Origin: an uncultured Planctomycetota bacterium
GTDB taxonomy: Bacteria; Planctomycetota; Planctomycetia; Isosphaerales; Isosphaeraceae
Direction: 5' to 3'
Length of the DNA: 64,000 nucleotides
Assembly (NCBI GenBank): GCA_963823665.1
Contig: CAWGMQ010000002.1
Span: forward strand, 96,001 to 160,000
Part shown: positions 3,001 to 60,486 of the stretch, one piece after another
Position numbering within the stretch: position 1 is the first letter of the stretch
Layout: each line of letters opens with the position of its first letter
Translations under genes and position numbers: made by a program
The notes under the pieces: generated by a model
Database searches by the model: none
Seen by the model: the letters and a program-made list of their open reading frames with translations, nothing else
Told to the model about the DNA's origin: nothing

Positions 3001-3784
3001 TGCCGCCGTACTCCACACGATAAGCAATGTCCGTCTCCACCGACTCGACTCGGCCGGCAAACGTCGGGTCTTCCAGGCTGCGGATCATTCCTCGCAGCGC
3101 CGTGGGTCCAGCCGGGCTCTCGACAACCAGATTCGCCTCGGCCGGCACAGGGCCCTGGAACCGCGCGACGACCAGCAGCGACGTGCCCCGCTCGATCTCG
3201 GTGTTCCCCGGATCGACCGAAACGCCCGTCCCGCCGGCCAAAGACTTGATCGACCTCGTGCCGCCGACATCCGACCGCGCCAGCGGGCTCATCGTGACCA
3301 GCACCACGAGCAACGAGCAAAGCGCCGCGGCGTGAGCCACCATCGCTCCGCGCAATGTCCAGCTCGGGACTGTTTCATTCCAGTCCGACTTGCGGCGATG
3401 ATCGAGCACTTCTTTGACGACCGCATATTGCAAGAAGCCGAGCTGGCCTGAAGGCGACGCACCAATCTCTTCGACGGCGGCCAGGAGCCCCGTTTTCAGC
3501 TCCGGATGCTTGGCCTCGATACGCCGCGCCACCCAGCGCGGATCGCGCGCCCTCATCTGCGCCCAGGCGACGCAGAGCACGCCCGTCACCAAGGCCACCC
3601 CCGCCAGCGACGCCGTCAGCCACCAATCGTCAATCGGCCCGATCGATTCCTGGAACCAGGCGGTGCGCATCCCGCAGCCCACCAGCGCCCACACCAGCCA
3701 GCACAAGGCCAGGCTGCTGAAGAGCCGCTCATGGCGGAATCGGCGAGCAACTCGTTCCAGTGCTTGAAACAATGACATACTCAT
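1..3784 (-). CDS. Large membrane-anchored coiled-coil protein (DUF4175-like) of the MoxR/BatA operon; several frameshifts; runs off the left edge
   Basis: Starts MSMSLFQALERVARRF (ATG 3784, ATGA overlap with the upstream stop). Three TM segments, an Ig-like region, then Q/E/R-rich coiled-coil fragments in ORFs 2275-2736, 1863-2525, 1333-1683, 1032-1496 and 702-923, then a G/Q-rich tail. Confidence 0.75.
526..727 (-). repeat. Four 48-bp coding tandem repeats (about QGQPQPGEQQGGQDGQ/R)
   Basis: Unit gaccctgtYgcccgtcttgccYgccttgcYgctcaccgggYtgcggct restarts at 526, 574, 622 (more diverged), 670 and 718 (partial). Confidence 0.9.
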
Positions 3785-5900
3785 GTGCCCACTGCCTCCG
3801 CATGAGTCGACCGGCGCCCGGCAGCACGCCGGCCAGCCAGCCAGGTTTCGACGATCAGTACACCGATCGCAGCCAGGATCAGCCACCGCCAGAGTTTCTG
3901 GCGGTTCTCGAGCTCCAGATTGTACATCTGCCGGAGCTCCGCATGATTGAAAGGTTTCGGGGTTTGGCTTGCCAGCCGGCAACCCCACTTTTGCAAGGTC
4001 ACGTCTTCGAGCGCGGCTGTTTTGCTTTCCAGGGGGTCGAGGTTGATCGCAAACGACCTCGTCCCGTCGGGTGTGTCGACCGCGTACACCCCGGGCTCGC
4101 CTGTATCCGCGAAGAACGGGCTGCCCTGCGGGACAGCCGCGATCGTCCCATCCGGTTTGTGGACGGTCAGACCACTGCCGCCTGCTTCGATCGCCGGCAT
4201 CGGCACCTGATCGAAGACCACGTGCGCACCTCCACCCAGGGTAGGGGGGCTTCGTCCCTCCAGTAACCCTGTCATCAAGGCCACAAACTTCGACGACCGC
4301 GCAAGCTGACTATCAACCGGTTGCCAGCCGCTCGCAAACACCACCAGCCGTCCCTTCCCCACGGCTTTCTCGATGACGGCGGCGTCGCCCGGCTTCAAAC
4401 CGGGCGATGACGTTGGCCTCGCCCAGCGATTCCGGCTTGATCAGCCGATGCTTCCAGAAATGGATCTTCGTGAAGTCGTTGAACTGGGCGCCGGCAAGCG
4501 GCGCAAAAAGCGGATGGTCGAACTTGATCTCACCCAGCATCACATCTTTCGAGGGCGCTTCTTCAATGGCCCAAGGCGCGACACCAGCAATCGTGGCGAG
4601 GGTTTCAGCACGACCGGGTGCAGCAGCCACGAACAGCAGGGTTCCACCGCCGCGCACATATTGCTCGAGCACGCTGCGCGTTCGCCCCGCTCGTCTCCGC
4701 TGTCAAAATCACAAGCGGCACGGCCGAGGGCTTCTCGAGCGCGACAGCCTTGTTCGGAAGCTGAGCAACGATGCGAATGGTGCGCCTCGGAGTGTCGACG
4801 AACACTCTCTCGAGGTAATAAAGAAGACCCGTGGAATCATCAGCCCGATCGCTGCCGATATAAACGACCGTCTTCTCGTCTCGTCGCTCATCCGCGAAAT
4901 ACACCGTGTTGTCGTATCCGCGCTCGTCGCCGCGCAGCCGGAGCAAACGATAGAGCCCCTGACCCTTCGGCCGCGGCACGTGCATCACGCGGCTCTCTCC
5001 AGGTGGAACGTAAACCTCCACGGGCGGGTCGGCCGCTTCTTTGTCGTGCTCGTCAACCCACACCAGCTCAAATTTCTCGCGCCGTGACGATGGATCGTTC
5101 AGCACCCGGACTCGCCGGCTATTGTTTGTAGCGGCCGGATCCGACTCGGCAGACTCCGCGAGCACCGCAAGGCCCGCATTCGACCCGGCATCAGTAACGG
5201 TCTTCAGTTCGAGGTCGACGTCGGAGGGCCATTCAAAACCGCCAAGCGCGTCCAGCCGGCTTCCCTGGGGAAGGTCGCTGATCAAAATCACCCGCCGCGG
5301 CATTCGCCCGCTCTTCTCGCTGGTATCCGCCTGCTCTTCGACTACTGAAACCACGTCGATCAGAGCCTGCCCCAGGTTCGTACCGCCCCACGAAGGCGCC
5401 AGTTGAGCGAGCTTCGCCTTGGCAATGGCATCACGCCGGGCCGCATCAAGCGTCGCCGATTCCCGGAAGCTTAAAAGGGGCTGGGTCTGTACATCAAACG
5501 AAAACACAGCCAGTTGGTCGGCAGGCCGGCGATCGGCAATCACCTTGTTCGCCATCTCGAGCGCCCGGGCCCATAAGTCGCCCCGCCGCATGCTGGCACT
5601 CGTGTCGATCAATACGGCCACTCGCCGCCGCTCGACGTCGCTGAATCCCAGGCGAGCCGCCTCACGCAGAAACGGCCTCGCAAACGCAAAAGCGAGCAAG
5701 CAAAGTGCCGCCGCTCGCAAGAGCAGCAGGAGCAAATGGTCCAGCCGGCTTCGCCTGGTGAGTCGCGGCGGAGTCGGCGCTAGAAACATCAGCGAGCTGA
5801 ACGGCACCTCTCCGCGCGGTGACCGGCGGATCAAATGAAATACGACCGGAGCGACGAGCGCCGTGAGCCCAAGGATGTACAGCGGCGTGAGGAAGCTCAC
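3781..5900 (-). CDS. BatA-type N-terminal double-TM + VWA domain protein (frameshifts near 4670 and 4400)
   Basis: MSFLTPLYILG...PVVFHLIRR...VPFSSLMFL; DTSASM MIDAS motif; C-terminal LWRWLILAAIGVLIVETWL. Confidence 0.85.
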
Positions 5901-49335: not shown

Positions 49336-51012
49336 TCAAGATCCGATCCCGGCGCTTCGACCGAAGCAAACCAGCGTGATGTCGTCGAACTGTGATCGTC
49401 CCGACTGGTGCTCGCGAACTGTCGCCAGAATCGCTTCGCCCACCGCGGTTGCCCCCTGCGGTGCCTGAACCAGTGCCTCACGAAGACGCTGTTCCCCGAA
49501 TGGCTTGTCCCGTCGATCCCGCGCATCGGTCACCCCGTCGGAGTAAAGCACCACCACGTCGCCGGGTTCAAGTGCGACCGTGATCGCCTCATAGCCTCCG
49601 CCGCCGTCGATACCCAGTGGCGTCCCGGACTCCGTGCGACCCACCTCCTCGATCACGCCGCCGGACCGCCGGACAAGCGGACACGGATGACCAGCGCTGG
49701 CAACCGTCAAACGATGTGATCGTGGGTCAAGCTCCGTGAACGCCAAGGTCACAAATCGGCAGTCGAACTCCGCACTGCATACCCGATCGTTCACTTTCGA
49801 GAGCACCTCTCCAGGCGCAACCCCCGCGCGGACGAGGTGCCGCACCTCCGGACAGATTCCGGCCATCATGAGCGCCGCTGGCACGCCTTTGCCTGCAACG
49901 TCCCCGAGGATAATCGCCCAGCGGCCCGCCTCAGACTCCCCGAGCGCAGTCGACCCGACCGGGATGTAATCGTACAGATCGCCGCCAACCTCTTCCGTGG
50001 GTCGATAACATTCCCAGAACGCGTAACCCGGGATGCCGGGCCGGTCTCTCGGCAACAGTGCGAGCTGGATCTGACCGGCCGCCGCCCATGACGCTCGCTT
50101 CTTCACCAGCGTGTGGTTCTCCACAGCAATCCCCATCGGTACGGCCAGCGCCGCCAGCAGGTCAAGCTCCGGGGATGTGAATCGCTCTGTATCCATTCGG
50201 CTGTCGAGCTGCACCATTCCGACCGGCTTGCCGTCGCTACCGGGCAGCGGCACGACCAGCGCTGTTCGTAGCGAGGAAGCCACGCTCTGCTGACTCTTGT
50301 AATCCGAGTCGAGCGTCGCATCCGAGATCAACACGGCTTTGCCCTCCTCGAGAACCTGACGAGCAATCGTCCGGGAGAGCGACGGCGTCTCCGGCGGACC
50401 GCTGCGCCGCCGCGCCGCCCGTAAGGGAAGCGTTCCGTCCGGCTCCACGGTCAAGACGAAGCCACGCTCCGCCCGTGGAAACACAGCCATCAGCCCATCC
50501 AGCACCCGCGCAAACATCTCGTTCAGATCGGCCCCCCCGAGCGCGCGGTTCACATCGAGAATCGCCTGGAAGGCTTCGACCGGCTGCGCCAGCCGCCGTG
50601 CCAGCCGGATGGAGCTCAGGTCCTCAATCGACCCCAGCACCGTCGAGCGCTCCTCATCGTCTTTCCGAAGCCCGACAGTTGGATCACGGAAAATCAGTTC
50701 ATGCTCGAATATTCGCACCCGGCAGCCGTCGCGCAGACGAACAGCGTGGAACGGCATGAGCTTCTTGTCGTCAACGTAACTGTGGTTCTGGCTGTCGAGA
50801 TCGACCAGGTGGCAAGAACCATCCGTCCGACGTTCAACCCGGGCGTGATTCCGGGAGACCTTTGCGTCGTCGATCTGGATATCCGAGCCGCGCGTGCGGC
50901 CGATGTGAAGGTCGGTCCCCGTGATCTCGAACACGCGCACAACCTGACCGTCCCGGATCAATTCAAGTGTCGGAACGACTGGCTGCGATTTGAGATTCTT
51001 TGGCCCGTTCAT
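49336..51012 (-). CDS. FHA-GAF-SpoIIE (PP2C) phosphatase
   Basis: FHA IGR..VSRNHA..DLDSQN; GAF region; VGGDLYD, GDVAGKG, ASAGHP, LYSDGVTDA, DDITL. Confidence 0.93.
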   Translation of the reverse strand: MNGPKNLKSQPVVPTLELIRDGQVVRVFEITGTDLHIGRTRGSDIQIDDAKVSRNHARVERRTDGSCHLVDLDSQNHSYVDDKKLMPFHAVRLRDGCRVRIFEHELIFRDPTVGLRKDDEERSTVLGSIEDLSSIRLARRLAQPVEAFQAILDVNRALGGADLNEMFARVLDGLMAVFPRAERGFVLTVEPDGTLPLRAARRRSGPPETPSLSRTIARQVLEEGKAVLISDATLDSDYKSQQSVASSLRTALVVPLPGSDGKPVGMVQLDSRMDTERFTSPELDLLAALAVPMGIAVENHTLVKKRASWAAAGQIQLALLPRDRPGIPGYAFWECYRPTEEVGGDLYDYIPVGSTALGESEAGRWAIILGDVAGKGVPAALMMAGICPEVRHLVRAGVAPGEVLSKVNDRVCSAEFDCRFVTLAFTELDPRSHRLTVASAGHPCPLVRRSGGVIEEVGRTESGTPLGIDGGGGYEAITVALEPGDVVVLYSDGVTDARDRRDKPFGEQRLREALVQAPQGATAVGEAILATVREHQSGRSQFDDITLVCFGRSAGIGS

Positions 51013-54911: not shown

Positions 54912-55041
54912 CGTGACGTACTCGCGGAGGAAAACAGGGGCGCAATTGGTTTGTCTAGGGGAGGGAAACACAGGGCCTGATAGACAAAGCCCCCAGGTGC
55001 TAGTCTCGCTGTTCTTGTCATGACAGCGCCTGCTCACATAA

Positions 55042-55128
55042 CTGAAGGCTTCCGTCAATACGAATCGCGTCCCGGCTTTCGTCCCTGAAGGCTTCCGTCA
55101 AATACGAATCGCGTCCCGGTTTCCGTCC
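55042..55128. repeat. Near-perfect 43/44-bp tandem duplication
   Basis: ctgaaggcttccgtcaa(a)tacgaatcgcgtcccggYttYcgtcc at 55042-55084 and 55085-55128. Confidence 0.9.
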
Positions 55129-55711: not shown

Positions 55712-57593
55712 TCACGGCGTTAGCAGAGCAACGTCTGTTCTGCGCTTGGTGAGCTGTCGACTCGTCCGGGGCCGTCGCAATGCAGCTTCCATGCGATCGA
55801 ACCAAGCAACGAGTGCCAGGGTGACATTCAGCCGGCTGCCGGCCAGGGTGTCGCCGATCCCCATTGCATGCTCCCGCATTGCGTGAATCAGCTTCCCGGT
55901 GTCGATCACTCCGAGGTCGTTGAGTCTGGTACCCAGGACCATCGCCTCCAGGCTGGGCAGATTGCGCGAGGCCGCACCAGTAGATGTCATTGAAGCCTCG
56001 CTTGTCGCGCCTCGCTCGGATCGGTTCGGGCACGATGCCGCGCATTGCCTCTCGGAGGACCGGCTTGCGAGTCCCGAGTGATTCGCGGACAGCCCGAGGC
56101 ACACGCAGGCAGAACTCGACGAGCCGCGGGTCGAGGAACGGATGCGAGTTCGCCATCCCCAACGGCGCCGCGAGGTGCCAGGATGACCAGTTGCCGGAGC
56201 ACGTCTGGATCGCGCAGAGGTCCGCGGACCGCTCGGCGGAAGGGGTGTATAGGCTGCGCGCGAAGTCCAGGCCCTTCTCCCAGAGGTCGTGGTCCCGGGC
56301 GAACTCGCGAGCGATCCAGAGGGGAACTGCCGTCGCACTCAGCGCCGGCCAACCGCCTCGACCGCGGCGAAGCCACGTCCCGATGCCGTCGCGCAGGCTG
56401 GGCGGGATATTGGGCCCGAGCCCGCGGCGCCACCAGATGTCCGCCAGGCTCCGGTTGGTCGCCCGCGCCCATCGCCGCGCCTCGGCCAGCGACTCGATCC
56501 AACGACCGCGACGGACGAGGCCGGCAATCTGGAGGGAGCGCCCATCCAGGAAGTCGTCCGCCCCCGTGCCCGTGAGTATGGTAGCCGCGCCCGCCCGGTG
56601 CGCCTCATCGATCAGGAGTCGCTCCATCCCCATCCGGAAGAGTCCGGCATACGGCTCGTCGTGCTCGGGAATCCCCTCGCCAAACCAGTCGAAGTCGAGC
56701 GCCTCGTCAGCGTCAATGAACCGGCCGTCGATGAGTCCGCCCTGGTTGACGACCATCTCGGCGAACGCCCGTTCCCCCGCCAGGTGGGTATTCCGGTAGA
56801 CGAGCGACAGCGTCGTCAAGCGTCGCATGCCGCCGCTCCCATCAAGGCATCGCCGCGCCTGGCAGACCACCGACGAACTGTCCATCCCGCCCGAGAGGTG
56901 CGCCGCGACGGAACCGCGTGCGACCCGCTCGTCGACCGCGCGACGGAGGAGGTCCTCGCAGCGCGCGCCGGCTTCGACCAGGGTGATCGGTTCCTGGCGC
57001 TCAACGAGACCTGCCCAGTCCCAGGTCGTCGTTCGTTGGATGCACGGGCCCGGACCCAACGTAACGAGGGTTCCGGCCGGAACGCGCTGGACCCCTTCGA
57101 AAGGAGTCGTCTCGCCCGGCAATTCGGTGAACGCGTTTGATGCCATAAGGAAGCGCGAGAAGTACTCCAGGTTGTAGGATCGGCGCCCGCCCAATGACGT
57201 GATGTGGGTGCTCACGGCGACGCCCGGGCCGTCGATCGTCCAGTAAAGGGGCCAAGCGCCGAACGGGTCGCGCAGCGCCAGCAATCGCCGCCGCCGGGGA
57301 TCCCAGACCGCGAGGGAGAACTCACCCTCCAGCCTCGCGAGGCCGGCGGCACCGAGCTGGCGATGGACGGCCAGCGCGAACCCCGCGTCGGTTGCCGAGG
57401 TCAGGCTCTCGCGGACCGACGCCGGCAATCCCCGCATGGCTTCGTCGCGGTAGTGCAACCGACCGATCAAGATGGCTGCAGTCGCCAGGACGGGATCCTC
57501 GGCGAACGTGACGAATGATACCGCCGGCGTTCCGATCAAGCGGAATTCCGCGGGCATTCCCGGAAGACAAACAACCTCGAATCCTGGTTTCAT
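55712..57593 (-). CDS. Lasso peptide cyclase (asparagine-synthetase-like C protein); frameshift near 55970
   Basis: LEGEFSLAVWD, RDPFGAWPLY, HLSGGMDSS (PP-loop), LTGTGADDF, HPFLDPRLVEF, KPVLREAM; no N-terminal catalytic Cys; directly after the B gene. Confidence 0.9.
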
Positions 57594-57786
57594 GGCGCAA
57601 CTCCCGATCCAGCAGAGTAGGAACCGAAGGGGACGAATTTCGACACGTCGAACGATTGGCATTGATGCCGGCGGGCGGTCCTGCGGCGGGCCCAGTCTCG
57701 ATCCTCGCGATCCCAGCGGGGCCTGGAGCAGCACTCCGGCGGAATTCCCGACGGGACCACATCTGCCCGGCAGCGCAGACTGCACA

Positions 57787-58560
57787 TCAGCGTGACCCGA
57801 AGTAATGGGCCACCGGCTGGTAGATCGCGCAGTTTTCCGGCTCATCGGTGACCACGCGTCCGCCGCACTCAACCCAGGCATGTGCCTCGAACGGATGCCG
57901 ACGGATGCCGACCTTCAGGACCGCCGGCAGCCCGTGGACCGCTCGAAGGATCTGGTAGCCCACGAGGGCTCGTTCCTTGCAGACCATCGGCAGGAGGACC
58001 CGGCGTGACGCCGCGTCGCGGACAAGCTGATCGACCGCGTCGATCACATCATCCCAGCCTGCGGGAGGGGACGGGCCCCGGTCGGCACGGTGCCAGCGTG
58101 TCCACAGCCGGACCGTGGTGGCCCAGCCGAGCAGCCGGATGCTGAACCAGGCGAGGACCATCAGCGATGCTACCGTAAGGCGGCCCGGAGCAGTGGTCCG
58201 TCCATGTCCGCGGCGACCTCGCGGTTTCTCGCTTTCCCGCGTGGCGGCGACCGGACCCCGATGCTTCACCAGCAGCCTTTTGCGGGCTAACTCGCCCACC
58301 AGCGTGGTGAGATCGGTGCGGATGCGGGCGTGGTCCACGCCGTAGAAGTCGGCAGCTCGATCCACCGCCACGTCGAATCCATCGTCGAGCACGAGCGTCA
58401 ACAGCTTCGTCCCGACCGGGTCGAGGCCATAGAACCGGCCTCGATTCAGGTTCAGCAGGCGAGCGATGCCGTCCTGGACGTCCAGGACGACGTCATTGCC
58501 CAGGCGGAGGCAACGTTCGCCCCGTCCCCGATCTGTGACCGCCTGATCCGTTCCCGCCAT
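57787..58560 (-). CDS. Fused lasso peptide B protein: PqqD-like RRE (B1) + transglutaminase-like leader peptidase (B2)
   Basis: RRE: ARLLNLNRGRFYGLDPVG...FYGVDHARIRTDLTTLVGELARKRLL. Peptidase: VCKERAL (Cys), FEAHAWVE (His), VVTD (Asp). Confidence 0.92.
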   Translation of the reverse strand: MAGTDQAVTDRGRGERCLRLGNDVVLDVQDGIARLLNLNRGRFYGLDPVGTKLLTLVLDDGFDVAVDRAADFYGVDHARIRTDLTTLVGELARKRLLVKHRGPVAATRESEKPRGRRGHGRTTAPGRLTVASLMVLAWFSIRLLGWATTVRLWTRWHRADRGPSPPAGWDDVIDAVDQLVRDAASRRVLLPMVCKERALVGYQILRAVHGLPAVLKVGIRRHPFEAHAWVECGGRVVTDEPENCAIYQPVAHYFGSR

Positions 58561-58588
58561 GGCAATTCCCCCGTTAGAGAAAAGGACG

Positions 58589-58625
58589 GACCGCCCGGGC
58601 GGCGCGGAGCACGCCGCGGGCGGTC
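58589..58625 (-). terminator. GC-rich stem-loop between precursor A2 and the B gene (attenuator/stabiliser)
   Basis: gaccgcccg...cgggcggtc inverted repeat, followed on the minus strand by cgtccttttctct. Confidence 0.6.
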
Positions 58626-58636
58626 GCGCCGGACGA

Positions 58637-58840
58637 TCAAAAGTCGAAGAACCAACGCCCCGGGCCATCATCGAGGCGCCAGCCCGGGCCGCCCTGAAGC
58701 CGGTCCAACGAGCCGAGCACGTAGAGTTGGGGCACCCGATAGGCCGTGGTGAAGCACGGCACCGGCGCGGCCGACTCATCCGCACCGGGAGACTCGCCGT
58801 CTCCGAGAAATCCGTGATACCGTAGCCGCTCTGAGAACAT
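58637..58840 (-). CDS. Lasso peptide precursor A2 (predicted core GGPGWRLDDGPGRWFFDF)
   Basis: gaggag RBS; leader ends YRVPQLYVLGSLDRLQ; core with G1 and D8/D9 (58640-58693). Alternative starts at 58843 and 58849. Confidence 0.88.
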   Translation of the reverse strand: MFSERLRYHGFLGDGESPGADESAAPVPCFTTAYRVPQLYVLGSLDRLQGGPGWRLDDGPGRWFFDF

Positions 58841-58892
58841 CACTGTCATCTCCTCGATTGAAGTACGCGACTGTTCATGGTCGTGAACGACC

Positions 58893-58920
58893 CGGCCGCG
58901 GGCCGGAGGGCCCGCGGCCG
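58893..58920 (-). terminator. Perfect 12-bp stem-loop between precursors A1 and A2
   Basis: cggccgcgggcc-ggag-ggcccgcggccg; no U-tract, so more likely an mRNA stabiliser than a terminator. Confidence 0.65.
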
Positions 58921-58935
58921 CCATCGAAGCAGCGT

Positions 58936-59133
58936 TCAGAACCCGTTGAAGTACCAGCGGCTGGGGCCGTCGTACTCCGAACCGCTCAGGTAGCCCTGGA
59001 GCTTTTCAAGCGAGCCAAGATCGAAGACGGCGGGTTTGCCGTACGCATGGCACGGTGTAGGGCCAGCCGGAGCCGCGGTACGCGGTCTCTCGGGATCGCC
59101 CATCGGATTATAGATGCAGACCAATCGATTCAT
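58936..59133 (-). CDS. Lasso peptide precursor A1 (predicted core GYLSGSEYDGPSRWYFNGF)
   Basis: gaaggaaaggaag RBS; leader ends YGKPAVFDLGSLEKLQ; core with G1 and E7/D9 (58939-58995). Confidence 0.9.
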   Translation of the reverse strand: MNRLVCIYNPMGDPERPRTAAPAGPTPCHAYGKPAVFDLGSLEKLQGYLSGSEYDGPSRWYFNGF

Positions 59134-59206: not shown

Positions 59207-59260
59207 TCACTTTTTCCCGAGGATGATCTCAAGTGCATTGCCGATGATGATGTCGATCAT
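59207..59260 (-). CDS. Micro-ORF 3, 17 aa MIDIIIGNALEIILGKK
   Basis: GAGGAGG RBS 7 nt before the ATG; below the ORF-track cutoff as a standalone ORF. Confidence 0.6.
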   Translation of the reverse strand: MIDIIIGNALEIILGKK

Positions 59261-59343: not shown

Positions 59344-59397
59344 TTACTTGCCGATGCTGATCTTGATCACGGCATCGAAATCGAACTCCTCGATCAC
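59344..59397 (-). CDS. Micro-ORF 2, 17 aa MIEEFDFDAVIKISIGK
   Basis: Purine-rich aggaaagaagagag upstream of a GTG; the frame is also open further upstream, so the start is less certain. Confidence 0.5.
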   Translation of the reverse strand: MIEEFDFDAVIKISIGK

Positions 59398-59705: not shown

Positions 59706-59783
59706 TTACTTGCCGACGTTCCTGACAACGGCCTTCACGGCTTCCGTGACGACGACCTGAATCAAACCGCCAAGGCAACTCAT
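59706..59783 (-). CDS. Micro-ORF 1, 25 aa MSCLGGLIQVVVTEAVKAVVRNVGK
   Basis: GAGGAG RBS 7 nt before the ATG; stop followed by hairpin gatcgagc-N6-gctcgatc (59679-59700). Confidence 0.6.
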   Translation of the reverse strand: MSCLGGLIQVVVTEAVKAVVRNVGK

Positions 59784-59902: not shown

Positions 59903-60486
59903 ATGGGCGACGAACGACCGGATGACATAACTAGGCTCCTCAGCGAGGCTCGCGCCGGCGCTGGAAGGTGCGCACGAGGAGCTCGTGCGGGCCATCTACG
60001 GCGAGCTACGGAACATCGCGCAAGGGTGGATGCATCGCGAGCGAGCCGACCACACGCTTCAGCCGACCGCGCTGGTCAACGAGGCGTTCTGCCGCCTGCT
60101 GGAGAAAGAATCGCTGGTCAACGCCCCCAATCGCGCGTACATGTTCGCTGCGGCCGCGGAGGCGATGCGCCGCGTCCTGGTCGAGCATGCCCGCGCGCGT
60201 CGGACCAGGAAGCGGGGCGGGAACCGCGTGCGCGTCCCCCTGGACCAGGTCCTCGCCGGTTTCGACGAGCAAGGCGTGGATGTGATCGCCCTGCACGAAG
60301 CGCTCGAGGAACTGGCCAAGGCGTACCCACGGCAAAGCCAGGTCGTCACGTTCCGGTTCTTCGGCGGTCTCCACGGTGCCCGAGGTCGCGGAGGCGTTGC
60401 AACCGAAAGTTTCGGTCACGACGGTTGAGAGCGACTGGCGGTTCGCGAGGGCTTGATTGAAAGATCGGCTGGGGGCCGTGCCATGA
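59903..60486 (+). CDS. Planctomycete-type ECF sigma factor (kinase-associated); frameshifts and an in-frame TGA at 60454
   Basis: DITRLLSEARAG, IYGELRNIA, HTLQPTALVNEAF, MRRVLVEHARAR..KRGG, RFFGGL, TVESDWRFARA*LKDRL; ATGA overlap with the kinase. Confidence 0.88.

Follow-up and report, generated by a model that had tools for sequence, protein, structure and literature searches.

Leader cleavage is the least understood step of lasso-peptide biosynthesis, and Thr at the penultimate leader position, Thr(-2), is treated as nearly invariant; the accessible part of a 2023 review calls it invariant (PMC10885120). In the portion of Duan et al. that was available (PMC10368454), the usual leader register is given as Tyr(-17)/Pro(-14)/Leu(-12), and a Tyr of the RiPP recognition element (RRE), Tyr33 in FusE, is suspected to contact Thr(-2). 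The same portion describes the bsf cluster, with which a leader carrying Ile(-2) was first validated in 2023, and refers to Kretsch 2023 for predicted precursors with Ile, Val or Ala at -2. LassoPred Supplementary Data 1, in the extent accessible, holds 4,749 RODEO predictions, with 213 occurrences in Cyanobacteriota and 6 in Planctomycetota (PMC12214591). The present analysis concerns a lasso-peptide gene cluster in a 64,000-nucleotide stretch of DNA (the window; positions 96,001 to 160,000 of contig CAWGMQ010000002.1, assembly GCA_963823665.1) from an uncultured Planctomycetota bacterium. The window lies on contig C2 of a source genome (G000) of 16.46 Mb in 12 contigs, estimated to be 91.9% complete. 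The cluster, A1-A2-B(fused)-C with all genes on the minus strand, is a genuine and probably intact lasso gene set, and it belongs to a subfamily whose leaders lack Thr(-2) and whose B proteins carry matching changes.

The subfamily was represented by 26 distinct precursors from 22 of 23 loci, L196 yielding none; L091, L094 and L095, where no precursor was found, stood outside this set. All 26 precursors fit the pattern Y-x-x-P-x-(L/V/I)-x-x-x-G-x-hydrophobic-x-x-(V/I/L). The narrower motif Y-x-x-P-x-(V/L)-x-x-L-G, which the initial annotation had pointed out, is present in the leaders of both A1 and A2. At the canonical -2 position, Gln was found in 23 precursors and Lys, Arg and Leu in one each, and Thr in none. 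The RRE column of the usual Thr-contacting Tyr was occupied by Phe in all 53 aligned subfamily B proteins (Phe43 in the source protein) and in 184 of the 201 proteins of a wider B homologue set. TfuB1 is taken here to be FusE and its aligned RRE Tyr to be Tyr33, an assumption that agreed with counting along the aligned chain.

The residue in this RRE column varied together with the leader residue. RRE Tyr was paired with Thr in 29 of 29 loci, Met, Ile, Leu, Val or Cys with Ile/Val(-2) in all 20 outgroup loci that had them, and Phe with Thr in two outgroup loci and with Gln, Lys, Arg or Leu in 16 of 16 subfamily loci, related loci in these counts not being independent and outgroup candidates having been kept only if they had the starting Tyr and Thr, Ile or Val at the position in question (73 kept, the rest dropped as likely spurious). 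A second change concerned the residue directly after the catalytic Cys, Lys195 in the source B protein. All 21 subfamily loci compared have Lys or Arg here, and all 145 others have Leu, Val or Ile, with one of the two scan patterns behind this count containing the Cys-Lys motif itself; in similarity searches, Lys followed the catalytic Cys in 199 of 201 B homologues. The initial annotation had overlooked that Thr(-2) is absent and that B carries corresponding changes.

Assignment to either described leader type was considered and rejected. The canonical Thr(-2) type of fusilassin and TbiA does not agree with Thr in 0/26 precursors and RRE Phe in 53/53 B proteins, and a phosphorylated cluster of the Bsf type with Ile/Val(-2) does not agree with Gln at the canonical position, nor was a gene for an HPr-type kinase present between positions 50000 and 64000. 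Judged from its sequences, the subfamily breaks the near-invariant Thr(-2) rule in either of two registers, one having Leu(-2) and a shortened leader, the other Gln(-2). Because the leaders lack Thr(-2) and the B proteins carry matching changes, the cut site is uncertain by one residue.

In register i, which is judged probable, A1 and A2 would both have Leu(-2), Gln(-1) and a Gly1-Asp9 ring, with a leader one residue shorter than usual. In register ii, considered rather unlikely, Gln(-2) and Gly(-1) would precede a Tyr1-Asp8 ring in A1 or a Gly1-Asp8 ring in A2; the small share left over falls to neither register. The Gly1-Asp9 macrolactam proposed in the initial annotation remains the favoured ring, but it needs a leader one residue short, and the published prediction table cuts one residue later. 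The numbering 'G1' and 'D9' is interpretation rather than observation.

Register i is favoured by several comparisons. Gly, Ala or Ser was found at its +1 position in 22 of 26 precursors, versus 8 of 26 at the next position. The residues that it places at -1 (Gln, Lys, Arg, Leu) often occupy this position in other leaders, Gln(-1) being found in 25 of 33 leaders of the Ile/Val type. The locus L203, whose B protein lies in the same clade (support 100/99), combines Ile(-2) and normal spacing with a Gly1, Gly5, Tyr7 and Asp9 core, so a single leader deletion would align the subfamily with it. Three similar cyanobacterial precursors in the accessible LassoPred data have Val(-2), Gly5 and Asp9, a comparison of precursors alone. 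Residue likelihoods also favoured register i, in a calculation that omitted the deletion cost and used a filtered outgroup. The pairing of hydrophobic RRE residues with Ile/Val(-2) in the outgroup and the Gly1, Gly5, Asp9 and aromatic-tail arrangement of RES-701-3 point in the same direction. The calculated monoisotopic masses of the cyclised products in this register are 2182.94 (19 residues) and 2062.94 (18 residues).

Other observations weigh against register i. The gapless canonical register, which requires no indel relative to the usual Tyr, Pro and Leu positions (PMC10368454, as far as available), puts Gln at -2, and the LassoPred rows seen for homologues are annotated in this way, five subfamily rows being cut after Gln-Gly/Ala/Asn to leave an 8-residue ring (PMC12214591). 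Register i needs a 10-residue ring in one of the 26 precursors (L212), whereas register ii fits rings of 7-9 in 26 of 26. No other leader with shortened spacing was seen, the outgroup pattern having enforced normal spacing. According to the accessible text on BsfA, its I(-2)L variant was barely cleaved by BsfB2, whereas the window has Leu at this place (PMC10368454). The likelihood comparison is weakened by the missing deletion cost and the filtered outgroup, and the sister-group argument comes from one locus with a linked precursor, L203; L204 and L209, two further loci of the HCW-motif group described below, gave no precursor in the vicinity of B.

These points favour canonical spacing, with Gln(-2) and Gly(-1), lassos of 18 (Tyr1-Asp8) and 17 residues (Gly1-Asp8), and a new S2 pocket in B for Gln or other long side chains, possibly formed with the clade-specific Lys after the catalytic Cys. 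Such spacing would further suit the hydrophobic residue preceding Gln, which fits the usual -3 position, the conservation of Gln (23/26) as for a recognition position, and the Gly4 and Asp/Glu8 found in the Ile(-2) fused-B cores of L027, L098, L101 and L109; two members known from LassoPred or from the loci start with Gly in it, but with Asn or Leu in register i. However, these Gly4/Asp8 cores sit in a B clade more distant than L203, the first core residue would become heterogeneous (Tyr, Phe, Lys, Glu, Asn, Val), no experimental precedent for Gln(-2) was found, and Phe in the RRE would presumably suit a hydrophobic -2 residue better. On balance, canonical spacing is held to be unlikely. The same doubtful standing is given to its wider form, in which the clade peptidase would read Gln at -2 through an S2 pocket rebuilt with RRE Phe and the Lys beside the catalytic Cys, forming a third, polar class of leader recognition orthogonal to the known ones. 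If this were true, it would spread over several hundred cyanobacterial and planctomycete enzymes, the products would include lassos starting with Tyr1 and Phe1, and one cyanobacterial branch would have a dedicated pentapeptide-repeat protein, maybe an immunity factor or receptor. With register i preferred, public tables may have predicted the subfamily cores one residue off.

The predicted complex of B with A1 residues 25-65 gave a score of 0.53, compared with 0.01 for the best of three controls, with a partner predicted local distance difference test (pLDDT) value of at least 46 and agreement of runs in at least 42% of contacts. This is weak support. Among 157 solved complexes, 116 reached the mark for this score, as did 2 among 215 mismatches, but at or below 0.60 only 18 solved complexes stand beside both passing mismatches. 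Because solved RRE-leader complexes exist, the pass may reflect likeness to them. As no contacts were given, the prediction leaves the register undecided and was not used as evidence.

At gene level (Table 1), the cluster belongs to the lasso family. The initial annotation had described a planctomycete A1-A2-B-C cluster with RRE and peptidase fused, and this was borne out by gene order and domain content. In B, the PqqD domain (PF05402, residues 35-97) scored 27.8 bits against a cut-off of 23.4 and Transglut_core3 (residues 144-250) 66.9 against 26, and the protein passed the lasso B2 model NF033537 with 69.9 bits (cut-off 33). Its triad Cys194/His227/Asp239 is kept in 201, 201 and 199 of 201 homologues. 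TfuB1 and TbiB1 were the top sequence matches of the RRE half (E 1e-12 and 8e-9) and its top fold matches in the predicted structure of B (mean pLDDT 88; root-mean-square deviation 1.4-1.5 Å), and a PDB fold search with the B2 domain gave no clear match.

Table 1. Genes of the lasso-peptide cluster in the window (positions of the 64,000-nucleotide stretch).
Feature	Coordinates	Strand	Details
Precursor A1	58936..59133	minus	65 residues; RRE-motif Tyr at 59043; Gly at 58995 is the core start in register i, the next Tyr that in register ii
Precursor A2	58637..58849	minus	70 residues; RRE-motif Tyr at 58741; Gly at 58693 is the core start in register i, the next Gly that in register ii
Fused B	57787..58560	minus	257 residues; RRE (about 20-97) and transglutaminase-like leader peptidase; Cys194, His227, Asp239; signatures Phe43, Lys195
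Lasso cyclase C	55712..57593	minus	asparagine-synthetase-like; SGGMDS ATP loop; 627 residues if read through; frame changes at 55963/55964

DNA alignment of the precursor pair indicated that A2 is a paralogue of A1, and purine-rich ribosome-binding sites precede both genes. The shared D-G-P-x-R-W-(Y/F)-F segment and the absence of Cys from both cores, already noted in the initial annotation, were confirmed; an adjacent Asp pair in A2 offers alternative acceptors, and in A1 a Glu stands two residues ahead of the Asp. In either register, both precursors combine the YxxPx(L/V) motif with Asp or Glu at core position 7-9 and no Cys. A pattern of leader plus short tail had two matches in the window, compared with 0.03 on average in 30 shuffles, which is a rough control only, because the pattern was written with the family already in view. 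A precursor profile search of the source genome returned A1 and A2 as sole matches. A second PF13471 match in this genome, on contig C7, was rejected as a second cluster, having a far better Transglut_core score and no precursor-like open reading frame (ORF) in 16 kb. No sigma-70-like promoter was found at the locus, and terminator-like matches stood at chance level (4 versus 3.3).

C contains Asn_synthase (PF00733, over cut-off) and GATase-like domains and starts with Met-Lys-Pro, with no N-terminal Cys. A role as glutamine-hydrolysing asparagine synthase was rejected on this missing Cys and on a TIGR01536 score of 125.5 bits against a cut-off of 267.1. The best NCBIfam match of C was the lasso cyclase model NF033535 (162 bits, cut-off 525), and NF033561 gave 142 bits (cut-off 300); both are narrow models, scored with the frameshifted frame. 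No close cyclase was found in the PDB, where only 7ylz matched (E 5e-8). The scores of C under every narrow NCBIfam cut-off count against the lasso reading, and they would suit enzymes that make an unthreaded, branched-cyclic macrolactam, or a C protein with other amide chemistry, as would the failure to find a characterised clade member in the searchable literature. Such an outcome is nevertheless quite improbable, given that every one of the 26 precursors has Asp or Glu at a fixed place in the ring and two or more aromatic residues in the tail, that B is over the lasso B2 cut-off and that the A-B-C layout is conserved.

The reading frame of C is broken in the assembly. Among 17 loci compared with C, the N-terminal frame was matched by 14 and the tail frame also by 13, and on either side of the break the frames of C run collinear with 13 homologous loci, one codon being absent, e.g., a 3-base gap relative to L011-L014. 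In the short-read run X3, one 151-base contig (X3-19, depth 2) spans positions 55896-56044 with no substitutions over 149 bases and adds two bases, GC, behind 55963 inside a short GC dinucleotide repeat. Read through, C would have 627 residues, compared with 588-658 in homologues. Four other extracytoplasmic function (ECF) sigma factor genes of the assembly appeared in two pieces (150 of 362 ECF candidates scored), so indel errors look common in it. Since the homologues demand one codon at this place and the read contig supplies the two missing bases, the frameshift is read as an artefact; an assembly error is close to certain. The frameshift near 55970, which the initial annotation had flagged as potentially real and inactivating, is very probably not real.

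Against this repair stands its dependence on a single depth-2 contig, the only one to cross the break; read cover is patchy, a single contig below depth 5 may be wrong, and run X3 may share its origin with the assembly. The competing explanation is a decaying cluster with a real frameshift in C and a lost transporter. The break is present in the assembly, no transporter adjoins the cluster and no PF13748 gene was found in the source genome, the neighbouring ECF gene also has a frameshift plus an in-frame TGA, and the cluster was not found in a congener (G001, 84% complete). Set against the read contig, the other split ECF genes, and the intact state of B and the remainder of C, decay is very improbable.

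For the cluster as a whole, a minimal and intact pathway for class II lasso peptides, belonging to an uncharacterised subfamily, cut in register i and working as set out here, is considered somewhat more probable than its alternatives together. The RRE half of B would bind the Y-x-x-P-x-(V/L) segment of A1 or A2, as its domain, fold and the motif suggest. The Cys194-His227-Asp239 peptidase would then probably cut after Leu-Gln, with Leu(-2) held in a hydrophobic S2 pocket and Phe in place of the usual RRE Tyr. By established lasso chemistry, as laid out in the accessible parts of two sources (PMC10885120; PMC10368454), C would adenylate the Asp9 side chain with ATP and couple it, around the aromatic tail, to the amine of Gly1, so that lassos of 19 and 18 residues form. 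Arg13, Trp14 and Tyr/Phe15-Phe16 would serve as plugs. The peptides may, on slender grounds, be exported by a transporter whose gene lies elsewhere and act extracellularly.

The subfamily spans, as its sequences indicate, cyanobacteria and scattered planctomycetes in a patchy manner. A search with B gave 64 other matches at E <= 0.001, 63 of them fused proteins with 37-50% identity; those with names came mostly from Nostocales, plus a metagenome-assembled genome of Gemmataceae. A profile collected 289 clusters (50% identity) at E <= 1e-30, and among the loci with names are those of Nostoc, Xenococcus, Richelia, Gemmataceae and Pirellulaceae. In the genome surveys, whose counts are floors, 60 relatives contained the subfamily in one genome (G015) and a weak split match with a Thr leader in another (G034). 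A stricter first look at 400 other genomes of the phylum gave one match (G180), with Thr leaders, and cyanobacterial genomes matched in 5 of 301 and 12 of 401 cases. The congener G001 shares the GDSL gene downstream of the cluster at 87-88% identity. The B2 domains of the subfamily formed one clade (20 rows, support 100/97), and in the full-length B tree the clade including the HCW group had, as a whole, support of 100/99.

The HCW-motif group consists of fused B proteins in the same clade (99/96), comprising P0112 and 78 related proteins and the loci L203, L204 and L209; one of its clusters has a member named from Ktedonobacteraceae, and its profile matched one of 400 other genomes of the class. 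In a large and mainly acidobacterial group, Ile/Val(-2) precursors end in an A-Y-x-A-D-E-like tail (among others L046, L047, L057, L059, L067, L086, L087, L141, L147, L148, L151, L162, L163 and L169). Some cores of the Ile/Val type may not be ordinary lassos, because 11 of 33 have no acidic residue at positions 6-10.

Members of the subfamily are already present, with no family or peptide name, in the accessible LassoPred table, one of them from a planctomycete (PMC12214591). Rows WP_006508560.1, AKV69511.1, WP_190932997.1 and NEO15087.1 (cyanobacteria) and MCA9069098.1 (Planctomycetota) share with the window the leader end (V/I)-Q-(G/A/N), the acidic position and the aromatic tail; these rows are predictions only, cut one residue later than in the initial annotation. 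The precursor WP_006508560.1 is the one found in L012, and a genome of the same family as the source (G1234) has a precursor identical to a row labelled Planctomycetota. This match and the abundance of TIGR02999 ECF genes in the source genome, given below, support its planctomycete identity. Six motif queries from the two window cores returned 0 rows among the 4,749 sequences, in line with the initial annotation, which recognised neither core as a known lasso peptide. The novelty claimed for the phylum was overstated, since 6 Planctomycetota rows, one of the subfamily, had already been predicted (PMC12214591). The literature covered, to which most subscription papers do not belong, showed no paper that deals with the subfamily, with Gln(-2) or with a planctomycete lasso peptide that has been characterised. 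A term search of the available text of a 2025 review of planctomycete metabolites did not return 'lasso' (PMC12078418), and the accessible parts of PMC9576775 and PMC13381572 hold nothing on the subfamily. The subfamily is thus in prediction tables but, as far as found, neither described nor tested, and neither window core is listed.

The genes around the cluster encode a GDSL hydrolase, an oxidoreductase and a SpoIIE phosphatase, together with a pair made up of an ECF sigma factor and a Ser/Thr kinase-WD40 protein. As first reported, no transporter or isopeptidase gene adjoins it; no scanned neighbour scored as an isopeptidase-type peptidase, and no systematic search for isopeptidases was made. 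The nearest ABC transporter found lies 7.6-12 kb upstream of A1. At L214:4721-9306 (G000:C2:162721-167306), an ABC ATPase and an ABC-2 permease fused to an M1 peptidase were noted, candidates for export in trans by proximity only. A confirmed transporter adjoins 7 of 18 related clusters (L016, L018, L019, L097, L207, L212 and L213; not every ORF was scanned), so the family seems often exported, and the missing transporter is weak evidence for signalling, which the initial annotation had overstated. Next to three planctomycete-type clusters (L019:4483-5484, L097:8750-9664 and L203:10039-10953) stands a gene for a lone ABC membrane domain (PF13748), of which none was found in G000, G001 or G015.

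An ECF sigma factor gene lies beside four of five planctomycete-type loci (window, L015, L019 and L097; not L008). This may mean regulation, though such genes are abundant, the source genome having 41 TIGR02999 ECF genes over cut-off. The divergent ECF gene of the window (TIGR02999; about 59910-60455, plus strand) has a one-base frameshift near 60370 and the in-frame TGA where Trp is expected, and the Ser/Thr kinase-WD40 gene after it is likewise in two ORFs, through error or decay.

A pentapeptide-repeat gene was found inside the cluster in 9 of 14 cyanobacterial loci (L012, L013, L016, L017, L018, L020, L210, L211 and L213), including all 7 rows of one clade, and is lacking in the window cluster. 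It is located either on the opposite strand, between A and B, or in the interval from B to C, and several of the proteins have a hydrophobic N-terminal stretch. Since the four genomes that were checked hold 35-59 pentapeptide-repeat matches each, the pairing looks like one retained association. Pentapeptide-repeat proteins protect gyrase in other systems, and by analogy the cluster gene hints at antagonism. No paper on a lasso and pentapeptide-repeat pairing was found at listing level. A 'pentapeptide' tag on a gene of L203 was rejected as a pattern artefact, the gene encoding a kinase-TPR protein.

The aromatic tails suggest plugs and a hydrophobic binding face. As to the role of the peptides, all estimates being weakly based, a narrow-spectrum antagonist of other microbes is put at slightly under even chance, a signal tied to the neighbouring ECF/kinase pair is less likely, and a silent or intracellular peptide is the least likely of the three.

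Upstream of A1, three tiny ORFs were observed on the minus strand (59207-59260, 59344-59397 and 59706-59783; 17, 17 and 25 residues). They are rich in Ile and Val and terminate with Gly-Lys or Gly-Lys-Lys; strong ribosome-binding sites precede two of them, and a 22-nucleotide repeat is common to two. They possibly encode small amphipathic peptides; no counterparts upstream of six related precursors and no DNA matches in G000, G001 or G015 were found. Directly after the GDSL gene, a dispersed repeat of about 115 bp (54971-55085) recurs in at least 7 further places in G000 (79-88% identity) and several times in G001, and synteny with G001 stops near it. Among related loci, two radical-SAM genes, one with SPASM, lie upstream of the Pirellulaceae cluster (L019:1326-4292) and may be tailoring enzymes or a separate system. 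In Nostoc MG11, a PhyH-type dioxygenase gene directly follows C and an FkbM methyltransferase gene lies upstream (L011:8614-9597 and 3072-3878), and L097:7-2527 holds a second cyclase and an acyltransferase.

The cluster is not a new kind of system. It is a compact three-component one with two matching enzyme changes, and its value lies in altered leader recognition more than in the host phylum. Because the solved lasso structures as of 2025 come from three other phyla, none being cyanobacterial or planctomycete according to the accessible text (PMC12214591), a product of the window type would be the first structure for either group.

Among described peptides, RES-701-3 of Actinomycetota resembles A1 in register i, being of class II with Gly1, Gly5, Asp9 and a Trp-Phe-Phe tail (PMC12214591). 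It differs in its Thr(-2) leader, shorter loop and phylum, and the likeness is one of layout only, with no evidence of a shared target. Fusilassin/TbiA-type systems (TfuB1, PDB 6jx3; TbiB1, PDB 5v1u and 5v1v) resemble the window in RRE sequence and fold and in the YxxPxL motif, whereas they have Thr(-2) leaders, an RRE Tyr and discrete RREs. The bsf cluster of Bradymonas sediminis, as far as the accessible text describes it (PMC10368454), shares with the window a non-Thr leader with the YxxPxL motif, and a changed S2 specificity was proposed for it. Its B1 and B2 proteins are split, its spacing is canonical and its RRE Tyr is retained, and it includes a kinase, a nucleotidyltransferase and an ABC transporter, whereas the window cluster has a fused B protein with RRE Phe, no tailoring genes and, depending on the register, Leu(-2) in a shortened leader or Gln(-2).

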